A stretch of DNA of 61,605 bases, filler included. It is 10 parts of 10 records of this genome, joined end to end, with 100 filler letters (N's around TTAATTAATTAA, not from the genome) between each part and the next. Parts side by side here need not be neighbours in the genome. Positions count along the whole stretch, not along the records: positions 15,592 to 22,449 come from SRR31156797_55139; 9 more parts are not named here. One strand, given 5' to 3'. The position numbers and the translations under genes are program-made. Under the pieces are notes generated by a model. That model worked only from the letters and a program-made list of their open reading frames with translations, was not told the origin of the DNA and ran no database searches. The first letter of the stretch is position 1, and each line of letters begins with the position of its first letter. This document shows positions 4,319 through 56,015 of the stretch, in pieces.

Positions 4319-5804
4319 GTGTTTGAAAAATTAAATGAAAGATTCGTACGGAGCCGGGAAGTATTCGGCGCCATGACCCCCGGGAAAAAGATTATGGTTG
4401 CGGGCGGGCTGGCCGCTGTTCTGGCCTCTTTTATCGTCCTGCTCATAATAGCCAATACGCCTGATTACCAGGTCATGTATTCCCGTCTTTCCCAGGAAGA
4501 CGCCGGGGCCATAGTAGATAAGTTAAAAGAAAAAAAGGTCCCCTATCGTCTTTCCGGGGGAGGGAGCGTGATCGAGGTTCCCAAGGAACTGATGCAGGAA
4601 ACCCGCCTGTTCTTAGCCACGGAAGGGCTGCCTGCCGGCGGCGCTGTCGGCATGGAAATGTTTGACGAAACAAAGCTGGGCGCCACGGATTTCGTCCAGC
4701 GTCTGAATTTTCAACGCGCTCTCCAGGGCGAACTCGAAAGAACGATCAAGAAATTTCCGGAAATCGACCAGGTTCGGGTTCATTTGAACATACCCAAAGA
4801 GTCGCTTTTTATTGAAGAAGCCAGGGAGCCGTCTGCATCAATCGTGGTTAAGTTGAAAATGGGACGGGAATTGTCCCGGGCTCAGCTTGCGGGCATCGTG
4901 CACCTGGTGTCCAGTTCGGTTGAAGGCCTGAAGCCGGAAAGCATAAGCGTGGTTGATACTTCCGGCGGCCTGCTGTACAGCAAGGAAGAAGGAGACGGCG
5001 CGCTTTTGAGCGAGAGTCAGGTTCGCCGCCGTCGCAAGCTCGAACAGGATCTGGCCAACCGCATCACCACCATGCTGGAACGACTGGTCGGCCCCGACAA
5101 GGCCCTGGCCAGGGTGACGGCCGATCTCAATTATCAGCAGATAAGCACAAGCGAAGAAATATACGACCCGGACCGTACCGCCATCCGCAGCGAACAAAGG
5201 CTTAGTGAAAAGAGCCAGGACGGGGCCGGGGCCGCCGGCGGCGTCCCGAATGCAACTTATGAACTCGGCACAGGACAAAGACAGCAAGGCGCCGGAGCCG
5301 GCGGAGGCGAGCAGTACGAAAAAACCGAAGACACGACCAATTATGAAATCACGCGTATTAACCGCACCATATTGGTTCCGGCCGGAGAAGTAAAACGCCT
5401 TTCAGTGGCGGTAATGGTGGATGGGACCTATACGGAAGCTGTAAAAGACGATAAAATAGAACGTACATATATACCCAGGACCCAGGCCGAACTGGCCCAG
5501 TTTGAGGACCTGGTCAGGAATGCCGTCGGGTATGATGAAGAGCGGGGCGATTCAGTCGTGGTCAGCAGCGTTGCCTTTTATTTACCCGAACAAAAAGCGC
5601 CGCACTGGTCCGACATGCCGCTCGATTATGCCCGTAAATACGGGAAGCCGGTGTTCAGCGTTTTATTAATAGTGTTGTTTTTCCTCTTCGTGGTCAGGCC
5701 GATTATGTCCAGGCTCATGAAAGCCACGGAGCCGGAAGAACCCGCGATTGAAACGGCCGCCCTGCCGGAAGGCGAAGAAGGAGCAGCTCTGCCTGAACCG
5801 GAAA
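4319..5804 (+). CDS. fliF: Flagellar M-ring protein FliF, 3'-truncated
   Basis: N-terminal TM, GATDFVQRLNFQRALQGELERTI, ASIVV, KRLSVAVMVDG, second TM near the contig end. Confidence 0.95.
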
Positions 5805-5904
5805 NNNNNNNNNNNNNNNNNNNNNNNNNNNNNNNNNNNNNNNNNNNNTTAATTAATTAANNNNNNNNNNNNNNNNNNNNNNNNNNNNNNNNNNNNNNNN
5901 NNNN
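5805..5904. other. Artificial contig spacer
   Basis: 100 nt: N-run, TTAATTAATTAA (stops in all six frames), N-run; composition changes abruptly across it. Confidence 0.98.
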
Positions 5905-13964: not shown

Positions 13965-14114
13965 GTCAGTTGTTAGATGAATGTTAGATTGCTATGGATT
14001 AGAATGTTAGATGAGTGTATAACAAAATTATTCATGAACTCACAAAAAACTTAGTTGATTTCTATCATCAGTAAGTATATAATAATATTTAATATTATAT
14101 TGGACGGCATAAGT

Positions 14115-15338
14115 ATGACTTATATAAAAAGAAATATCGAAGACACAGTGTTATCAGCGGAAAAAATGTTCTCTGCAATTCTAATCACTGGTGCTCGCCA
14201 GGTTGGTAAAACCACTTTATTAAAACACATTAAGAAGGATATTAATTATTTGACATTGGATGACCCACTGCTATTACAAAGTGCATTGGAAGATCCGGGG
14301 AGTTTCTTTGAAATTAATCAACCTCCTATAATTGTTGATGAAGTACAATATGCTCCTCAGTTATTTAGCTATATTAAAATGATAGCTGATTCAAGTCATG
14401 CTAAAGGTCAGTTTTATTTAACTGGCTCACAGCAATTTCATATGATGAAAAATGTAAGTGAATCATTAGCTGGAAGAATCGGAATAATTAACTTAACAAG
14501 CTTATCAGTAAGAGAAATTCAAAGCATTTCTTTTAACAATAAATTTATACCCAATGATGAATATTATAACAAACGAAAAAAACATGCTAAACCTTTATCA
14601 TACAATGAAATTTGGAGTATTATTCATAACGGAACTATGCCTGCAATGTATACAGAATTTTCAAACTGGCAATTATTCTATGCATCATATACAAAAACTT
14701 ATATTGAACGGGATGTAAGGTCATTAACTCAAGTAGGCGATGAGCAAAGTTTTGTTAAATTCATGATTACACTTGCTGCAAGAACTTCACAAATGTTAAA
14801 TCTAACCGCTGTTGCCAATGAAGTAGACATAAGTATACCTACCGCAAAAAGGTGGTTATCAATACTGGTGTCCTCAAATATAGTATATTTATTGCAACCA
14901 TATCATAACAATATTTCTAAAAGAACTGTAAAAACACCAAAACTCTACTTTTTAGATACAGGTCTAGCAGCATATCTAACCAAGTGGAATACCCCAGAGA
15001 CTATGGAAGCCGGTGCAATGGCAGGAGCATTTTTCGAGACATTTGTTATTGGGGAAATATTGAAAAGTTATTATAATGCCGGAATATTGCAACCAAATTT
15101 ATATTATTATAGGGATAAGGACAAAAAAGAAATAGATTTACTAATAGAGCAAAATGCAACACTTTTTCCTATTGAAATCAAAAAAACTTCTGTACCAAAA
15201 AAAGATCACATAAAACATTTTTCAGTACTTAATAACATTAAAAATATTAGCGTTGGAACTGGAGGAGTCATTTGTATGTATGACAATATTTTAAATATCG
15301 ATAAGAAAAATATGATTATTCCTGTCAATTATTTATAA
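14115..15338 (+). CDS. AAA+ ATPase with DUF4143 (COG1373)
   Basis: ITGARQVGKTT, DEVQYAP, LTGSQ, SESLAGR, KTPKLYFLDTGLA, YYYRD..KKEIDL...PIEIK; ATG 14115 preferred. Confidence 0.9.
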   Translation: MTYIKRNIEDTVLSAEKMFSAILITGARQVGKTTLLKHIKKDINYLTLDDPLLLQSALEDPGSFFEINQPPIIVDEVQYAPQLFSYIKMIADSSHAKGQFYLTGSQQFHMMKNVSESLAGRIGIINLTSLSVREIQSISFNNKFIPNDEYYNKRKKHAKPLSYNEIWSIIHNGTMPAMYTEFSNWQLFYASYTKTYIERDVRSLTQVGDEQSFVKFMITLAARTSQMLNLTAVANEVDISIPTAKRWLSILVSSNIVYLLQPYHNNISKRTVKTPKLYFLDTGLAAYLTKWNTPETMEAGAMAGAFFETFVIGEILKSYYNAGILQPNLYYYRDKDKKEIDLLIEQNATLFPIEIKKTSVPKKDHIKHFSVLNNIKNISVGTGGVICMYDNILNIDKKNMIIPVNYL

Positions 15339-15491: not shown

Positions 15492-15591
15492 NNNNNNNNN
15501 NNNNNNNNNNNNNNNNNNNNNNNNNNNNNNNNNNNTTAATTAATTAANNNNNNNNNNNNNNNNNNNNNNNNNNNNNNNNNNNNNNNNNNNN
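15492..15591. other. Artificial contig spacer
   Basis: N-run + TTAATTAATTAA + N-run. Confidence 0.98.
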
Positions 15592-15658
15592 GAGGGGTTG
15601 GGGAGAGTTCTGAGTTCTTAACTTTACAACGATGCCACGAGGGATACCCCTACACGAT
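15592..15658 (+). mobile_element. Probable 3' end (domain VI) of a group II intron
   Basis: GAGGGG...CCCCT-A-CAC-GAT: basal stem with bulged A and terminal AY; domain V lies beyond the contig break. Confidence 0.55.
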
Positions 15659-15818
15659 ATTATGCGATAAGTTTTGCAGCTCATGATAGGTTACTATCAA
15701 AAAGAAACTAAAATTTATATAATTGATTTATTTTCAAAGTAAATGTTAATATAGATAAATGGATAGAACTAATACTAAAAATAAGTCCGATAATAAAATT
15801 AATATGAAAGGGATTCGA

Positions 15819-16448
15819 ATGAAAAAAACAATAACAATATTACTAATTTTAAGTCTTAAAATGCTAGCAATAGCAAGTGAAGTTCAAATCAATATTTTTA
15901 CCGGTAAGTATTACAAAAAAACTGCTTATGTACCTCAAATGGCTATTTGGGTAGAGAAATCAAATGGAGAATTTATAGAAACACTTTATGTAACTGAATC
16001 AGAAGGGAAAGGAAAATATTTTGGTGTTAGAAAAAGAAAAGAAGCTCTACCTGTATGGAGAAATAAAAAGGGAAATAAAATATCTAAATCAAATCTGGAC
16101 GGCATTGCCGGAGCATCATACCAAAATAATTTTGAGATCATTAAACAAATAGATAGCTATCCTCAGAACTTTAAATTATATCTGGAAGTTAATAAATCTT
16201 TTGATTATAATTCATATTTTGCCAGAGGTCTAAGCTCAAAGGAAAAAGGGTATAATACAGGATATTCAGGTCAACCCTCTATAGTATATGAAGTGTTACT
16301 TGATAAAAATAATGCAAAAAGTTTAAAAAGAATGAAAGCTATTGGGCATGGAAGTCCAACGGGTAAAAATGGGGAAATTAATTCTGATTTGTCTAAATTA
16401 ACTACAGCTTTATATATTCTGGATGAGATTAAAGTTAGAATTAAATAA
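15819..16448 (+). CDS. Secreted DUF2271-like protein
   Basis: Signal peptide MKKTITILLILSL; PQMAIWVE..NGEFIETLYVT, EALPVW, DGIAGAS, SGQPSIVY. Confidence 0.75.
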   Translation: MKKTITILLILSLKMLAIASEVQINIFTGKYYKKTAYVPQMAIWVEKSNGEFIETLYVTESEGKGKYFGVRKRKEALPVWRNKKGNKISKSNLDGIAGASYQNNFEIIKQIDSYPQNFKLYLEVNKSFDYNSYFARGLSSKEKGYNTGYSGQPSIVYEVLLDKNNAKSLKRMKAIGHGSPTGKNGEINSDLSKLTTALYILDEIKVRIK

Positions 16449-16758
16449 AAAATTACTAAAGAGCTAGTTTGTGGAAGTTTTGAACACAAAATTAAAGTAA
16501 AAAAACGAGTTTATTAATCAAATCAATAAAAAGAATCAAAATTTAGATTCATTATTTTTAAGTAAATTTAATCTTTACACTGTTATCTATGAAAAGGGTA
16601 GTGTTACTTAGCGAAAGAACATGCTGTAAAAAAAAGTAATTTTTTGGTTACAAAAGAGATGGTCATCAAAAAATTACTAAATTATAGTATAATGGCTTTA
16701 GTTTAAGTAGTTAATTCTAGTATAAGTAAATACCATGATATTTAATATTACATAGTAG

Positions 16759-17868
16759 GTGGGGAAAATGATTAAATTATCTATTGATAAGATTGAAGAA
16801 GGTATGAAATTAGGGGAAGATATTACTACAAGTACAGGTAAAATTCTTTTGACAGAAGGAACAATATTAACGAAAAAATTGATAGAGAAAATTAGAAAAC
16901 TATCAATAACTGTAATTCTAATTGAACGCAAAAGTAAAAAAAATATCTTAAATGATATAATAAAAAATAGAGTCAATAATTTGGAGAACTCTGTTAATCA
17001 TATTAGAAGAATTCATATTAAAGAAGAAATTGAAGAGAAGTTTAAGGAGATTGCGGAAATTGCAAAAAATGGAATTCTTAATTTACATATTCCTTGTGAT
17101 GAAATAATCGAGAATTGTGATTGTGTAGAGAAAATGATAAGAAAACATTTCTCAGCAAACACACTTGAAGTATTTGAATGTATACTAAGTACACGTGAAA
17201 AAGATGAATATTTATTCAGGCACTCTATTAATGTATCAACTATTTCTTATTTAATTGGAAAATGGCTGGGGTATGGAGATAAAAAACTAAGTAAACTTCT
17301 AAAGGCTGCATTACTTCATGATATTGGAAAATTAAGAATTCCTAGAGATATTCTTAATAAACCCGGAAAACTTACTGAAGCAGAGTTTGGCATGATAAAA
17401 AATCATTCAATCTATACACAAGAAACCTTGACTAAAATTAAAGGAATCGATAAGAAAATAGTTTCCGGTGCGACACTTCATCATGAAAAAATAGACGGTT
17501 CAGGTTATCCATTTGGACTACAAGGTGAAAAAATTCCTGAGTTCGCCAGAATAATAGCCATAGCGGATATTTTTGACGCTATGACAAGTGATAGAGTGTA
17601 TCATAAGAAAAGATCTCCATTTAAAGTTATTAAAATGTTTGAAGAGAGTTTCTGGGGTACTTTGGATTACAAGATAACCAGACTATTTACGAGAAAATTT
17701 CTTGAATATTATATAGGAGTTGATATAGTCTTAAATAATGGTACAATTGCTAAAATAGTTAGAATAAATCCTCTGGAAACAGCTAAACCACTTATACAGA
17801 CAAGTAAAGGTGAATTTATTGATCTAAGTCTAAATAGAAATTTAGCTATTGAAACAGTTGTATCTTAA
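16759..17868 (+). CDS. HD-GYP cyclic-dinucleotide phosphodiesterase 1
   Basis: HSINV, LLHDIGK, HHEKIDGSGYP, IADIFDAMTSDRVY. Confidence 0.92.
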   Translation: MGKMIKLSIDKIEEGMKLGEDITTSTGKILLTEGTILTKKLIEKIRKLSITVILIERKSKKNILNDIIKNRVNNLENSVNHIRRIHIKEEIEEKFKEIAEIAKNGILNLHIPCDEIIENCDCVEKMIRKHFSANTLEVFECILSTREKDEYLFRHSINVSTISYLIGKWLGYGDKKLSKLLKAALLHDIGKLRIPRDILNKPGKLTEAEFGMIKNHSIYTQETLTKIKGIDKKIVSGATLHHEKIDGSGYPFGLQGEKIPEFARIIAIADIFDAMTSDRVYHKKRSPFKVIKMFEESFWGTLDYKITRLFTRKFLEYYIGVDIVLNNGTIAKIVRINPLETAKPLIQTSKGEFIDLSLNRNLAIETVVS

Positions 17869-18035
17869 GTAAAATTTACCTCTTTTAAGCTTTTTTTTGA
17901 TTATTTTTATAGTTTTTTAAAATAATTTCAAACAATTAGCTAAAAAATTACTTATTTATATTATAATTTATTAATATAGAGGGTGTAATGTCAAGTAAGT
18001 TTTATTTTTTTTAAGAGCTGAAGAGAGGGATTATT

Positions 18036-18659
18036 ATGTATAATGTATTTTTTTACCGATCAGGAGCAGATGAACTTCCTGTAATGGATCATATTTCATC
18101 AACTACGTGTAAAGAGCAGGCAATATTATTGAGGGAAATAAGCCTCATTGGAATTATTGAAGATAGATTTAGAGGCACGTATTTTCGTTATGTTTCAGAT
18201 GATATCTTTGAATTAAATGTAAAAGTTGGCAGTAATTTGAGTAAGGTTTTTTATTTTATTACTGATACAGACAGAGTAATTATTCTAAACTCATTTACAA
18301 AAAAGACAAAAATAAATCCAGCTAAACTATTAGAAGAAGCTGTCGATAAAAAAGACGATTATTTTAATAATAAAGCTAAACGATCACTAAGCTTAAAAAA
18401 GATTCTTAATAATGATTTGTTACTTAAAAAAGAGTATAAGAAACTTTCAGATGAATATGCTGCAATAAAAAATCTTGCTGAGTCAGAGCAGTTAAATCAA
18501 TTAGACTTACTTGATATGATTCAAAGAGGGGTAATATATATAACAAAAGATGAAAAAGGTTATTATACTCCCAGCTTAAAGCAAGTAAAAGAAACTATAC
18601 AAAAATTTGGCAATACAATCCAATTTAGATTTTTAGAAGACAGTTTTATTAAAATATAG
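18036..18659 (+). CDS. Fused Gp49/HigB-type (RelE-fold) toxin domain + XRE-HTH antitoxin domain, degenerate
   Basis: aa 1-110 follow the Gp49/RelE pattern (FELNVKVGSNLSKVFYF..RVIILNSFTKKTKINP); aa 115-205 follow the HigA/XRE pattern (KKEYKKL..EY, LNQLDL, EKGYYTPSLK, FGNTIQFRF). Confidence 0.7.
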   Translation: MYNVFFYRSGADELPVMDHISSTTCKEQAILLREISLIGIIEDRFRGTYFRYVSDDIFELNVKVGSNLSKVFYFITDTDRVIILNSFTKKTKINPAKLLEEAVDKKDDYFNNKAKRSLSLKKILNNDLLLKKEYKKLSDEYAAIKNLAESEQLNQLDLLDMIQRGVIYITKDEKGYYTPSLKQVKETIQKFGNTIQFRFLEDSFIKI

Positions 18660-18660
18660 T

Positions 18661-18704
18661 AATAAAGAGAAGAAGTGAAGAGAGATTCACTTCTTCTCTT
18701 TATT
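18661..18704 (+). terminator. Intrinsic terminator
   Basis: Perfect 19-bp stem AATAAAGAGAAGAAGTGAA / TTCACTTCTTCTCTTTATT immediately after the stop. Confidence 0.85.
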
Positions 18705-18993
18705 TTATCTATTAGGAAAATATAAAATTGTCAGATTTCAAAGCTCTTTTTTAGTGTAAAATAAAATATTATAATAAAAAGATTTTGCCACTCATTAATG
18801 GTGCTGTATTGCAATCAAAATAGTGTAGCTATTCTATGATATTACTAAAATGAAGAAGCTAATTAATGCTAAACATAATATGATTAGTTTGGAATATTAT
18901 ACAAAAAATTACTAATAAATAGTATCATATGTTAATAAATGTGAAAAGGTGTCAATTGTTGTCTTATGAGATAATTTCAAAGGAGATGCAAAA

Positions 18994-20022
18994 ATGGGAA
19001 CAGCAATTAAGGAAATGATAGAAGGAGTTTTAAGTTTAGAAAAAGAAACGTTTCTTTTAATTTTAATTAATCAAATTAAGTCTTCGTTAACTATAAATAA
19101 TATTAAAAGAAAATCAATTAATATTTTAAGTTTAATTGGTTTGTTTACAAGTCGAAAAACTAAAGAGCTTATAGCTAAAAGATATCAAAAAATATCCCTA
19201 ACAGCAAATGAGGGAATAAAAAATCTAAGTATTTCTTATAGCAAAATTGAAGAAAATCTTGATTTAATGGAAAAAATCCTTAAGAGAAACTATTCTAAAA
19301 ATACTATTGCAGTACTTGATTATTTATTATATGCAAAAGGACATGATGAGTATCTTTTTAAACATTCCGTAAATGTAGCATTGTTATCATTTTTTATAGG
19401 AAAATGGCTCGGGTATACTGATAAACAACTATATAAACTAATTAAAGCCGCTTTATTACATGATCTCGGTAAATTAAAAATTCCAAAAGAAATATTACAA
19501 AAACCAGGTAAACTTTCTGTAGAGGAGTTCGAAATTATAAAAAAGCATCCTATCTATACTTATGAAATAATAAATGAAATTAAAGGTTTAGATAATGATA
19601 TATTACGTGCAGCTGTAATGCATCATGAAAAAATAGATGGGACAGGTTATCCCTATAGTTTGATCGGTAAAGAGATAACAGAGTATGCTAAGATTATCTC
19701 CATAGCAGATATATTTGATGCAATGACTTCTGAAAGAGTATATCATAAAAAAAAATCACCTATTAAAGTGCTCGAAATGTTCGAGAAAAATTTCTGGGGA
19801 ACTATTGATCATCAAATTACTCAAATTTTTGCTCGAAATATGATGGAGTTTTATCTTGGTAAAACTGTAATATTGAATAATGGTATTATAGCTAAGATTA
19901 TTGCGCTTAACTCTGAGGAGGCAGCAAGACCGATAGTAGAGACAAGAGAAGGTATTTTTATTGATTTAAGCATAGATAAATCAATAGAGATTAAAACAAT
20001 TATTTATGAAAAAATTAGATAA
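18994..20022 (+). CDS. HD-GYP phosphodiesterase 2 (paralog)
   Basis: HSVNV, LLHDLGK, HHEKIDGTGYP, IADIFDAMTSERVY. Confidence 0.92.
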   Translation: MGTAIKEMIEGVLSLEKETFLLILINQIKSSLTINNIKRKSINILSLIGLFTSRKTKELIAKRYQKISLTANEGIKNLSISYSKIEENLDLMEKILKRNYSKNTIAVLDYLLYAKGHDEYLFKHSVNVALLSFFIGKWLGYTDKQLYKLIKAALLHDLGKLKIPKEILQKPGKLSVEEFEIIKKHPIYTYEIINEIKGLDNDILRAAVMHHEKIDGTGYPYSLIGKEITEYAKIISIADIFDAMTSERVYHKKKSPIKVLEMFEKNFWGTIDHQITQIFARNMMEFYLGKTVILNNGIIAKIIALNSEEAARPIVETREGIFIDLSIDKSIEIKTIIYEKIR

Positions 20023-20057
20023 AAATCGAGATGACCTGAGTCAGTCATCTCGATTTT
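20021..20057. terminator. Bidirectional terminator
   Basis: AAAATCGAGATGAC / GTCATCTCGATTTT stem between convergent genes. Confidence 0.8.
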
Positions 20058-20060
20058 AAT

Positions 20061-22100
20061 TTATTTAGCTATTACTACTGAACTGTGAGCAGGAACAATA
20101 ACTCTTCCATCACTAACTTCAACTTTCGTTTCAGTCAATTCAGTGATTCCAGCTTTTTCTCCATCCATGATTACGATCATATCTTTAGTAATCTCATCAC
20201 TTTGAAGAACATACTCATTTTCTAAACTATTATGAATAACGATTAATTCTTTGAACTTATCACCGTTTGAATTATCAAGTTTATAAGCAATAACTCTATC
20301 TTCATTAGGGATTCCTGAGTCGATAAAACTTAATCCGTTTCGAATCTCATCAGCTGAATAATAATTAAATGCGTAAATCTCTCTTCTCATCTCTGCTAAT
20401 CCACAGTAATAATCATAGATATTCGCAAATATAGGTAATCTTTTTCTACTCCATCTGATTTTATTGACGAAATCAGAAGAAGAGTAACTGTTTTCATGAT
20501 AATGTCTGATTCCACTCATGTCATCATCTACATGCAACTGATCACTAGTGTGAGCTCTATGTGGTTCCGGATCTCCCTCTATTAATGGCTTAGTTCTACC
20601 AACCTCTACACCGGCATGAAGTATTATTTTACCTTGACTTGTAAATAATATTGCACTAGACTGCTTATGTAGTTTTGCTCTCATAGCTGTCGTTCCGCCA
20701 TATGATATGTTTAGTTTATCCCATAGAGTAAATCCGTCATGAATAGTCAGATATTGCATTAGTTCTTCCGGTTCATGTGCAAATCTGTTATAGCTGTTTT
20801 TATCAAGTTTAGCACCTTTTGCATCAAAGTCTATTAAATTTCCCATAATACTTGCTCTAAGAGTTGGAGTTAATTCAGTATTTCCCTGAACAAATCCTTT
20901 CTCTTCCATTTTACCACTTACAGCATCTCTAATAGAATCATTAAACATACCTATGTCACAACCAGTCGGATATGTGTAGCCGTGTCCTTTAATAATTGTT
21001 TCTTCTCTGGCTATGTCAGTAAAATCCCACGCTTCTCCATGAAGAATGATATCATTTCCTAATCTCTCTCTGATATCAAGCAGAGTTTTTTTATCTATGA
21101 ATCCCATTAAATCAAATCTGAATCCATCTACTCCGTATTCTTTAACGAAAAACTCTAAACTCTCTATTATAAGTTTTCTAACCATTGGATTTTTTGATTC
21201 AAGAGTTGGACCTGCTCCTGTTTTACCACTGATGTATGATCTGTCATCATATCTGTAATAACATCCCGGTGCAATATTTTCAAATATTTCAGTTCCATAA
21301 GTATGATTATATACAACGTCCATAATAACACCTAAATCATTGCTATGAAGCACTTGGATTAATTTTCTGAACTCTCTGATTCTTGCATATGGATCTTTTT
21401 CATCACTTGCTAACCATCCCTCTACCGTGAAGTAGTTATGAGGATCATATCCCCAGTTATAGTTAAGCTCTTTCTCTTTATACTCTTTATCACTTTCATC
21501 TACAGTACAGTAATTTTGAATCGGAAGGAACTGTACATGTGTAACACCCATTTTTTTCAAGTGTTCGATTCCTTCACTATAATTAGCAAAACCTAAAAAA
21601 GTTCCTTTATTTTCCACATTAGTATCAATAGTAAAATCTCTCACATGAACTTCATAAACTACCATATCAATTGTATTTTTTATAGTTCCAAGTCCGATAG
21701 CTTTATCTTTTTCACCAGCTTTATCACTATCCATATTTACGATAGCTCCATATCCGGATTTATCGCCCTTATGATAATTACCACTCATAGACAGAGTATA
21801 AGGATCAATTCCTCTTTTTCTTTCTTCTGTTGATGTGATAATTTCATATTGATAAAATATTCCGTCAAAAGTATTTAATTCAAGATCTTTTGCCTTGATC
21901 TCCTTATTCCAAACACCGCTTTCACTATCGAAATCAAGTTGAATTCCCTCTTTGTTGATAGCTTTTTGCTCTCTATCATAAAAGAATATTCTCAGGTCAA
22001 GAATACTTGGTGACCATAATTTACATGTAATATTTCCCTCTTTATCCAGTCTAACCCCTAAGTCATTTCTGCTATAAATCTTGTCTGTAAAGTTGTTCAT
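20061..22100 (-). CDS. pulA: Type I pullulanase (GH13)
   Basis: YNWGYDP, MDVVYNHT, GFRFDLMG, HGEAW, TIHD; ATG 22100 follows a GGGG RBS. Confidence 0.9.
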   Translation of the reverse strand: MNNFTDKIYSRNDLGVRLDKEGNITCKLWSPSILDLRIFFYDREQKAINKEGIQLDFDSESGVWNKEIKAKDLELNTFDGIFYQYEIITSTEERKRGIDPYTLSMSGNYHKGDKSGYGAIVNMDSDKAGEKDKAIGLGTIKNTIDMVVYEVHVRDFTIDTNVENKGTFLGFANYSEGIEHLKKMGVTHVQFLPIQNYCTVDESDKEYKEKELNYNWGYDPHNYFTVEGWLASDEKDPYARIREFRKLIQVLHSNDLGVIMDVVYNHTYGTEIFENIAPGCYYRYDDRSYISGKTGAGPTLESKNPMVRKLIIESLEFFVKEYGVDGFRFDLMGFIDKKTLLDIRERLGNDIILHGEAWDFTDIAREETIIKGHGYTYPTGCDIGMFNDSIRDAVSGKMEEKGFVQGNTELTPTLRASIMGNLIDFDAKGAKLDKNSYNRFAHEPEELMQYLTIHDGFTLWDKLNISYGGTTAMRAKLHKQSSAILFTSQGKIILHAGVEVGRTKPLIEGDPEPHRAHTSDQLHVDDDMSGIRHYHENSYSSSDFVNKIRWSRKRLPIFANIYDYYCGLAEMRREIYAFNYYSADEIRNGLSFIDSGIPNEDRVIAYKLDNSNGDKFKELIVIHNSLENEYVLQSDEITKDMIVIMDGEKAGITELTETKVEVSDGRVIVPAHSSVVIAK

Positions 22101-22449
22101 TATTTCCCCTTTCAAGATGAATTGTTGTTATAGTGAATGGCTAAACCTAAAACATAGTTGATAAAAATATGCTAAGATTTTCCATAATTTTCATATAAAT
22201 TTTAATTTGTTATTTTTAATTGAAAATATTAAATAAATCATTAAGCTTACTTATACTTTATAACCTATAATTTTCATAAAATCAATTGATTTTGTTTAGT
22301 TTATCTAATCTATGGTTTTTATGGAAACGATTCAATTTCAATTAAAGTTTATTATAGTTTATCCCAAATGTCAAGCTGAAATAATATTATTTTCTATATA
22401 AAATTTATATATGTTATAATTAATTATAATGAATGTTGTAAATCTTGGC

Positions 22450-22549
22450 NNNNNNNNNNNNNNNNNNNNNNNNNNNNNNNNNNNNNNNNNNNNTTAATTA
22501 ATTAANNNNNNNNNNNNNNNNNNNNNNNNNNNNNNNNNNNNNNNNNNNN
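22450..22549. other. Artificial contig spacer
   Basis: N-run + TTAATTAATTAA + N-run. Confidence 0.98.
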
Positions 22550-27789: not shown

Positions 27790-27889
27790 NNNNNNNNNNN
27801 NNNNNNNNNNNNNNNNNNNNNNNNNNNNNNNNNTTAATTAATTAANNNNNNNNNNNNNNNNNNNNNNNNNNNNNNNNNNNNNNNNNNNN
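27790..27889. other. Artificial contig spacer
   Basis: N-run + TTAATTAATTAA + N-run. Confidence 0.98.
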
Positions 27890-33210: not shown

Positions 33211-33310
33211 NNNNNNNNNNNNNNNNNNNNNNNNNNNNNNNNNNNNNNNNNNNNTTAATTAATTAANNNNNNNNNNNNNNNNNNNNNNNNNNNNNNNNNN
33301 NNNNNNNNNN
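33211..33310. other. Artificial contig spacer
   Basis: N-run + TTAATTAATTAA + N-run. Confidence 0.98.
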
Positions 33311-38710: not shown

Positions 38711-38810
38711 NNNNNNNNNNNNNNNNNNNNNNNNNNNNNNNNNNNNNNNNNNNNTTAATTAATTAANNNNNNNNNNNNNNNNNNNNNNNNNNNNNNNNNN
38801 NNNNNNNNNN
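38711..38810. other. Artificial contig spacer
   Basis: N-run + TTAATTAATTAA + N-run. Confidence 0.98.
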
Positions 38811-45321: not shown

Positions 45322-45421
45322 NNNNNNNNNNNNNNNNNNNNNNNNNNNNNNNNNNNNNNNNNNNNTTAATTAATTAANNNNNNNNNNNNNNNNNNNNNNN
45401 NNNNNNNNNNNNNNNNNNNNN
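45322..45421. other. Artificial contig spacer
   Basis: N-run + TTAATTAATTAA + N-run. Confidence 0.98.
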
Positions 45422-50557: not shown

Positions 50558-50657
50558 NNNNNNNNNNNNNNNNNNNNNNNNNNNNNNNNNNNNNNNNNNN
50601 NTTAATTAATTAANNNNNNNNNNNNNNNNNNNNNNNNNNNNNNNNNNNNNNNNNNNN
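50558..50657. other. Artificial contig spacer
   Basis: N-run + TTAATTAATTAA + N-run. Confidence 0.98.
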
Positions 50658-55915: not shown

Positions 55916-56015
55916 NNNNNNNNNNNNNNNNNNNNNNNNNNNNNNNNNNNNNNNNNNNNTTAATTAATTAANNNNNNNNNNNNNNNNNNNNNNNNNNNNN
56001 NNNNNNNNNNNNNNN
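55916..56015. other. Artificial contig spacer
   Basis: N-run + TTAATTAATTAA + N-run. Confidence 0.98.

Follow-up and report, generated by a model that had tools for sequence, protein, structure and literature searches.

A single-chain HigB-HigA fusion with an apparently disarmed toxin site, encoded between two HD-GYP paralogs

The fusion gene and its relatives

The window analyzed here, a stretch of 61,605 nucleotides (nt) made of ten joined contigs, contains a gene at 18036..18659 (plus strand) in which the toxin and the antitoxin of a higB-higA type toxin-antitoxin (TA) module are joined in a single chain of 207 amino acids (aa). The N-half of the protein (aa 1-112; 18036..18371, plus strand) corresponds to a Gp49/HigB toxin domain with the RelE fold and the C-half (aa 113-207; 18372..18656, plus strand) to a whole HigA antitoxin. 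The open reading frame (ORF) starts with ATG, is preceded by a Shine-Dalgarno-like GAGAGGG (18023-18029, plus strand, 6 nt 5' of the ATG, read from the sequence), and is followed by an intrinsic-terminator-like hairpin of 19 perfect pairs with a 6-nt loop (18661-18704, plus strand), which begins 2 nt past the stop codon. The uninterrupted ORF, ribosome-binding site (RBS), and terminator reported in the initial annotation of this locus are thus all present. The gene lies between the genes of two HD-GYP proteins (HD-GYP1 upstream and HD-GYP2 downstream) on the third piece of the window, a contig of 6858 nt and 28.7% GC (15592..22449) that is its sole true context. The open frame is beyond chance, as none of 20000 nucleotide shuffles of the ORF remained open, and at this A+T-rich composition the probability of a stop is 0.095 per random codon.

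A fused ORF could also be an artefact of assembly or sequencing, with a base or a stop missed at the higB/higA junction. In the relatives, the toxin and antitoxin genes directly adjoin or share a few bases, so that a single error could join them. IMG/VR holds 50 loci that encode relatives of the fusion protein; the nine tblastn matches there that looked full-length all proved to be gene pairs separated by a stop or a frame change at the junction. Of the 48 loci examined, 40 have an ORF of about 90-106 aa whose start coincides with the toxin stop or lies within a few bases of it. A contig of run X1 (6858 nt) covers 16400-20100 of the window with no differences, but it is the only one to bridge the junction by at least 31 nt and may itself be the source of the window sequence. 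Three more, near-identical fragments, X2 to X4, come from the runs of three other studies and have no insertion or deletion inside the ORF. X2 (17989-18386) and X4 (18158-18381), from two estuary metatranscriptome libraries, share two substitutions (one synonymous, one S66N), and X3, from a sediment DNA run, is identical to the window over 18010-18226. The initial annotation had named a stop or frameshift in reads at the junction (about aa 110) as a refutation. X2 and X4 are clean at the junction (about 18369-18374), although their agreement ends 12-17 nt beyond it, short of formal bridging, and the runs X2 to X4 leave parts of the gene beyond 18386 without clean cover. Since a protein from another assembly (P0001, below) is fused at the same place without a gap, we regard an artefact as extremely unlikely.

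P0001 (199 aa, separate assembly) is the sole close relative. It is 55% identical to the window protein over 199 aa (identities at 70 of 112 N-half positions and 40 of 84 C-half positions) and is a full-length fused homolog of the kind that the initial annotation had proposed to look for. Searches of 5.8 billion clusters, 1.84 billion representatives, JGI metagenomes, IMG/VR, plasmids, and phages turned up no further member of this sub-lineage. Scanning genome_contigs gave no relative of the fusion protein and one distant match (36%) to HD-GYP1, and scanning JGI metagenomes with the alignment of the window protein and P0001 gave one locus, 28% identical and matched in the N-half only. The plasmid tblastn search returned 204 records, none covering at least 80% of the fusion protein, and the phage search returned 8 records, one of which reaches 88% coverage in two pieces.

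A HMMER search of the 1.84 billion representatives gave 321 matches to the fusion protein at E <= 1e-3, and stand-alone toxins of 100-140 aa make up most of the best 150. More distant fused proteins also exist, namely P0003, P0005, P0122, and the partial P0133. P0002 (217 aa) was rejected as a fused TA protein. It is a tandem Gp49 repeat with two matched stretches in which GIFEIRGKVGTDISRVMYFF is repeated, and it may have arisen as a repeat in the assembly or be a true double toxin. Two viral contigs from IMG/VR (L033 and L036, about 5001-5360) carry a Gp49 gene broken by an in-frame stop after 52 codons that resumes downstream, and may be cases of phage-borne toxins that have been inactivated.

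The fusion gene could be a functionless relic in which the loss of a stop codon joined two decaying genes. Such a relic would fit the loss of family-conserved residues in both halves and the rarity of the lineage, which has two members. However, the two lineages, 45% diverged, have each retained an uninterrupted frame of about 200 codons although stops make up 9.5% of random codons, their conservation is patterned (core residues and a new invariant motif, described below), and the Shine-Dalgarno-like sequence and terminator are in place. A relic is thus very unlikely. Judged by this pattern of conservation, the fusion is a real, old, and selectively maintained single-chain descendant of higB-higA.

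The toxin and antitoxin halves of the protein

The Pfam family Gp49 (PF05973) matches aa 33-103 at 28.9 bits, above its curated cut-off of 23.9. AlphaFold2 (AF2), run with a 59-row alignment, modeled the whole protein with a mean predicted local distance difference test (pLDDT) score of 82.1 and a predicted template modeling (pTM) score of 0.71, and pLDDT was mostly above 90 up to about residue 140. Searched with Foldseek, this model matched the HigB toxins of Streptococcus pneumoniae (6af4_C, E 9.5e-7, template modeling score 0.76, target-normalized) and Mycobacterium tuberculosis (HigB1, 7nbu_Y, E 2e-4) and, more weakly, HigB2 of Vibrio cholerae (E about 1e-2). S. pneumoniae HigB was also the best sequence match in the PDB (E 0.056), with an identity of only about 20-22%. 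The Pfam match and the placement of the model on S. pneumoniae HigB agree in assigning the N-half to the Gp49/HigB RelE fold, as had been proposed.

The active site was compared over 151 aligned rows, made up of the window protein and the best 150 of the 321 representatives. The initial annotation had read the motifs of the window protein correctly (E59-L60-N61; K70-V71-F72-Y73; L84-N85-S86-F87-T88-K89-K90-T91) and held that two conserved arginines and a histidine are replaced in them. At position 61, where the window protein has N, R is found in 146 of 151 rows and N in 2, and at position 70, where it has K, R is found in 147 of 151 rows and K in 2. Both states are confined to the window protein and P0001. 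At position 85, however, the N of the window protein is the majority state (94 of 150 rows, versus H in 41 of 150). The claimed loss of a histidine is thus rejected, which leaves two of the three proposed replacements as genuine deviations from the family. The fusion protein retains E59, F87, K89, and K90. Among the aligned rows, position 87 is F in 136 of 150 and position 89 is K in 149 of 151.

In the HMMER alignment to 6af3_A, N61, K70, F87, and K89 correspond to R68, R73, F90, and K92 of S. pneumoniae HigB. The toxicity of that protein in Escherichia coli is reported to be abolished by R68A, R73A, and F90A, with R73A having the strongest effect and removing about 70% of RNase activity (PMC7984235). 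In V. cholerae HigB2, mutation of the arginines on beta2 and beta3 is reported to lower activity 170- and 350-fold (PMC5416850), and these arginines, going by strand position, would be the equivalents of positions 61 and 70. With both key arginines changed, the toxin domain is likely disarmed, that is, attenuated or dead. The initial annotation's description of an apparently disarmed RNase site can be followed as a likely reading, tempered by the intact F87 and K89 and the conservative change at K70.

The C-half had been described as the cognate antitoxin with an XRE-type helix-turn-helix (HTH). No Pfam HTH was found at E <= 1 with the whole protein or at E <= 10 with its C-half or with P0001, whereas HTH_3 was found at E 1e-14 to 2e-15 in all three of the canonical fused relatives tested (P0003, P0005, and P0122). 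Weak sequence matches of the C-half were to NCBIfam couple_hipB (E 0.07) and PDB 9sf2_A (E 0.079), and there was a weak match to phrog_1373, annotated as a transcriptional regulator (E 5e-4). BLASTP of the C-half against a single cognate antitoxin (L001) gave no alignment, and a profile search was therefore needed. We built the profile from 32 distinct cognate antitoxins of the two-gene relatives in IMG/VR, leaving out two loci with split toxins (L033 and L036), one with an unrelated ORF (L040), and duplicate sequences. This profile matched aa 113-207 of the window protein alone at 26.1 bits (profile positions 10-90) and the C-half of P0001 at 21.5 bits, while the best of 2000 shuffles reached 10.9 bits. 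Because there is no HTH_3 match, the antitoxin identity of the C-half rests on homology to HigA and not on a recognizable HTH.

Within the C-half, aa 113-150 make up the toxin-binding N-segment, and aa ~151-199 form a degenerate HTH of the XRE type. Several XRE structural residues are kept (the helix-2 Q and L, I-[ST]-K, E-x-G, P-S-L, and the terminal F), but the turn and recognition helix, which read TGIxQADISK in the relatives, read QRGVIYITK in the window protein. The stretch GVIYITKD, at the expected site of the recognition helix, is invariant between the window protein and P0001. Two AF2 runs did not predict a helix at aa 165-180, where pLDDT was 50-70. The model of the C-half had no Foldseek match at E <= 1e-3 and no VIA-align match at Z >= 5 (S. 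pneumoniae HigA, 6af3_B, gave Z 3.2). Searches of the ESM Atlas with the C-half gave scores of 0.88, to be read as leads only; HTH_3 is present in the closest clusters, for which Spirochaetota are the most frequent source. The models returned the expected RelE fold for the N-half and no significant match to a five-helix HTH fold for the C-half. By homology, the C-half is HigA by descent, with its DNA-reading element apparently rebuilt. Such a rebuilt recognition helix speaks against canonical DNA reading, but being strictly conserved it also points to a new binding function. In the model, the N-segment forms a short strand at aa 117-119 and then helices over aa 120-150, and because pLDDT is 86-97 over aa 101-140, it is probably still docked on the toxin domain in cis.

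CapRel-type defense proteins are single chains in which the toxin domain is auto-inhibited by a C-terminal antitoxin-derived domain. The chief rival to a tamed protein follows this logic. The fusion would be an active single-gene TA or abortive-infection module with an RNase that is inhibited in cis and released by a trigger, such as a phage protein that binds the remodeled C-domain, and its position beside HD-GYP genes would be incidental. The retention of E59, F87, K89, and K90 and of a basic residue at position 70 fits this explanation, as does the confident modeling of the antitoxin N-segment against the toxin domain. A conserved non-canonical surface such as GVIYITKD would suit a sensor, and aa 51-113 have a weak domain-level match to the PADLOC model NsnC (24.7 bits). 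Fusions of TA proteins with the BECR fold are also reported to be common, with some fused TAs acting in defense (PMC11980606). Against it, the nearly universal beta2 arginine is Asn in the fusion protein, and the corresponding alanine mutant of S. pneumoniae HigB is reported as non-toxic (PMC7984235). All four canonical fused relatives (P0003, P0005, P0122, and P0133) keep both arginines. On the 6.9-kb contig, PADLOC found no defense system and we found no defense or mobile gene, and in G+C content at third codon positions the fusion gene (0.188) matches its neighbors (0.17-0.18). An upstream element that the fusion gene has in common with the HD-GYP genes, described in the next section, likewise speaks against an incidental position. 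We consider an active module somewhat unlikely.

The HD-GYP genes and a shared upstream element

Both genes that flank the fusion gene match Pfam HD_5, which agrees with the location between two HD-GYP paralogs given in the initial annotation. HD-GYP1 (16759..17868, plus strand) matches at E 8e-32, with LLHDIGK and HHEKIDGSGYP visible, and HD-GYP2 (18994..20022, plus strand) matches at E 8.8e-30. The two are 53% identical over 281 aa, and from the HD_5 matches together with the HD and HHExxDGxGYP motifs the flanking genes are identified as HD-GYP genes. The listed GTG start of HD-GYP1 (16759) is probably wrong, as the ATG at 16768 follows a better RBS, AGGTGGGG.

All three genes are preceded by a shared element of 26 nt, consisting of AAAAAATTACT followed by a TATAAT-like hexamer. 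Its copies (all plus strand) lie at 16668..16693 for HD-GYP1, 17942..17967 for the fusion gene, where the hexamer is TATAAT, and 18903..18928 for HD-GYP2. The distance from the end of the copy to the start codon is 66, 69, and 66 nt, respectively. With at most one mismatch allowed, the 14-mer core of the element has five copies in the contig and none elsewhere in the window, with 0.42 copies expected and none of 300 first-order Markov simulations of the contig reaching five. The HD-GYP1 copy has an inverted partner, AGTAATTTTTT, at 16635-16645. Together they form an inverted pair, AGTAATTTTTTGGTTAC / GTCATCAAAAAATTACT, at 16635-16678 upstream of HD-GYP1 (17-nt arms, 88% complementary, with a 10-nt gap), which is a candidate dyad operator holding the shared element. 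Weaker inverted partners precede the copies of the fusion gene and HD-GYP2. The shared element could act as a promoter common to the three genes, as an operator, or as both. The fifth copy of the core, AAAAAATTACTAAA at 16447-16460, overlaps the stop codon of the upstream DUF2271 gene and is far from any start codon.

A second indication of an HD-GYP partnership comes from P0001. Among the 120 listed of 2620 matches to HD-GYP2, we found an HD-GYP protein, P0262 (405 aa, 44% identical to HD-GYP2), and P0001 and P0262 are each encoded on a single Logan contig of 5033 nt. With contigs of 4000-6000 nt for 11 of the 120 listed matches, the chance that the equal length is a coincidence can be roughly put at about 0.5%. 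P0001 thus probably adjoins an HD-GYP gene, and the synteny with HD-GYP genes proposed in the initial annotation finds support in the equal size of the contigs, but in that only. In P0262, the HD motif reads LLFDVGK (Phe for His) while HHERMDGSGYP is kept, and this protein may be catalytically altered. A complex prediction for HD-GYP2 and the fusion protein scored 0.00; having been run without controls, it speaks neither for nor against binding.

It is also conceivable that the protein is tamed but has no tie to the HD-GYP genes. The TA module would have inserted between the tandem paralogs, shed its toxicity, and survived as an autoregulator or in an unrelated role. TA modules insert freely, each of the three genes seems to be transcribed on its own, a strong terminator following the fusion gene, and proteins of the P0262 cluster occur on other contigs while no other P0001-like protein was found. 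This explanation leaves unaccounted for an element that is confined to the locus and stands at the same distance before all three genes, as well as the equal 5033-nt contigs of P0001 and an HD-GYP protein, which are unlikely by chance. We judge it unlikely.

The fusion gene has only four true neighbor genes on its contig. Besides the HD-GYP genes, these are a gene for a DUF2271 protein (15759-16448) and a GH13-like gene (20061-22115, minus strand), the latter convergent with HD-GYP2. A hairpin of 14-15 bp lies between these convergent genes (20022-20057) and resembles a bidirectional terminator. The ten contigs of the window (5.1-9.6 kb each, 28.7%-62.2% G+C) are a mixed metagenomic set and not one genome. 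They are joined by 100-nt linkers of the pattern N44-TTAATTAATTAA-N44 at 5805-5904, 15492-15591, 22450-22549, 27790-27889, 33211-33310, 38711-38810, 45322-45421, 50558-50657, and 55916-56015, and findings based on neighbors across a linker are therefore invalid. The DUF4143 AAA ATPase gene at 14055-15338 was rejected as a neighbor of the fusion gene because it sits on a different contig.

A possible history and comparison with known systems

The best explanation of these observations, which we put forward tentatively, is a tamed, non-toxic regulator derived from a single-chain HigB-HigA and tied to the HD-GYP genes. Loss of the toxin stop codon let the RelE-fold toxin (aa 1-112) read into the complete antitoxin (aa 113-207). 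Later, in the lineage of the window protein and P0001, both working surfaces were altered, namely the arginines of the RNase site (beta2 to Asn, beta3 to Lys) and, apparently, the recognition helix of the HTH. The growth-arresting mRNA interferase action would have been lost in this course, and the toxin domain would be held in cis by the antitoxin N-segment, so that the protein may now serve as a regulator or adaptor. The weakest step of this scheme is the last, in which the protein would act on, or be co-regulated with, the HD-GYP phosphodiesterase genes by way of the element containing AAAAAATTACT. The initial annotation had likewise proposed a TA module domesticated into a single-chain regulator that possibly serves the flanking phosphodiesterases. 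Of that proposal, the single gene of toxin and cognate antitoxin, kept fused in P0001, and the replacement of two arginines (N61 and K70) are supported; the service to the HD-GYP genes has indirect support, from the element before all three genes and the paired 5033-nt contigs.

Several observations weigh against the tentative explanation. Two of the four functional residues of the toxin (F87 and K89) are intact and K70 keeps its charge. Active sites in the RelE superfamily are reported to vary (PMC5416850), and therefore a residual or altered RNase activity is possible. The fusion family has two members only. If the recognition helix is truly lost, DNA binding and action at the shared element become less likely, and the element itself may be just a common promoter copied along with duplicated genes. 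The co-location of P0001 and P0262 is read from equal contig size only, and clusters at least 90% identical to P0262 lie on other contigs, one of 378,978 nt. As no further P0001-like protein was found in the databases searched, the pairing may therefore not be constant. Finally, contigs from RNA libraries cover part of the fusion gene, but such libraries can contain DNA, which limits what they say about its expression.

A more specific form of this explanation, which we consider doubtful, is that a pseudo-toxin and a rebuilt HigA together make a dedicated regulator of the HD-GYP genes. It would bind either the AGTAATTTTTT/AAAAAATTACT dyads upstream of its own gene and of both paralogs or the enzymes themselves, in a partnership conserved in both members of the family. 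If so, a former addiction module would have been wired into second-messenger turnover. More generally, if the tie to the HD-GYP genes is true, the locus would be a simple case of a TA-derived protein controlling cyclic-dinucleotide signaling, and if it is false, a natural "toxin-dead" HigB would still be useful for probing the residues that the family needs. The lineage of the window protein and P0001 represents a long-kept TA fusion in which both surfaces appear rewritten. A rewritten RNase site together with a rewritten DNA-reading helix is the look expected of an addiction module exapted into a host regulator.

The architecture itself is already known, although, as the initial annotation noted, the two domains are normally encoded by two genes. 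The catalogue of Gerdes (2025) reports 195 single-gene BECR-fold TA fusions, of which 69 are gp49-HTH (PMC11980606, Table 2, with sequences in Table S2). Like the window protein, these have an N-terminal PF05973 domain followed by an XRE-type antitoxin in one ORF of about 160-215 aa, and a 194-aa fusion from Succinivibrio in that catalogue resembles P0003, P0005, and P0122. The canonical fusions have ELR or EIR, RV(L)YF, and HTH_3 at E 1e-14 or better, whereas the window protein and P0001 have ELN, KVFYF, and no HTH_3 match. Neither GVIYITK nor IFELN occurs in the part of the supplements of PMC11980606 that was searched, and the remainder might contain a member. What is new is thus the ELN/KVFYF variant without a recognizable HTH.

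The HigBA system of S. pneumoniae (6AF3/6AF4) shares the toxin-first order and an HTH antitoxin and provides the best structural match to the N-half but, unlike the fusion, consists of two proteins and has an active site of R68, R73, F90, and K92 (PMC7984235). HigB2-HigA2 of V. cholerae (5JAA, 8A0X) belongs to the same family, with arginines on beta2 and beta3 and an aromatic residue and a lysine on beta4 (PMC5416850). The N-terminus of HigA2 folds onto the toxin as a helix and a strand (PMC5416850), where our model of the fusion has its strand and helices (aa 117-119 and 120-150). It differs from the fusion in being a two-gene system and is a weak structural match only. In Pseudomonas aeruginosa, HigBA is reported to change the expression of genes for cyclic di-GMP phosphodiesterases (PMC6265988). 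That case involves an active two-gene toxin and distant genes with no adjacency, and by analogy it would offer only a functional precedent for a link between HigBA and phosphodiesterases. Our literature searches turned up no paper that describes an inactive fusion of HigB and HigA or such a fusion encoded next to HD-GYP genes. The single-chain arrangement recalls the CapRel-type proteins introduced above, but their toxin fold and chemistry are unrelated to those of the fusion protein, and in the latter the catalytic site appears degraded.

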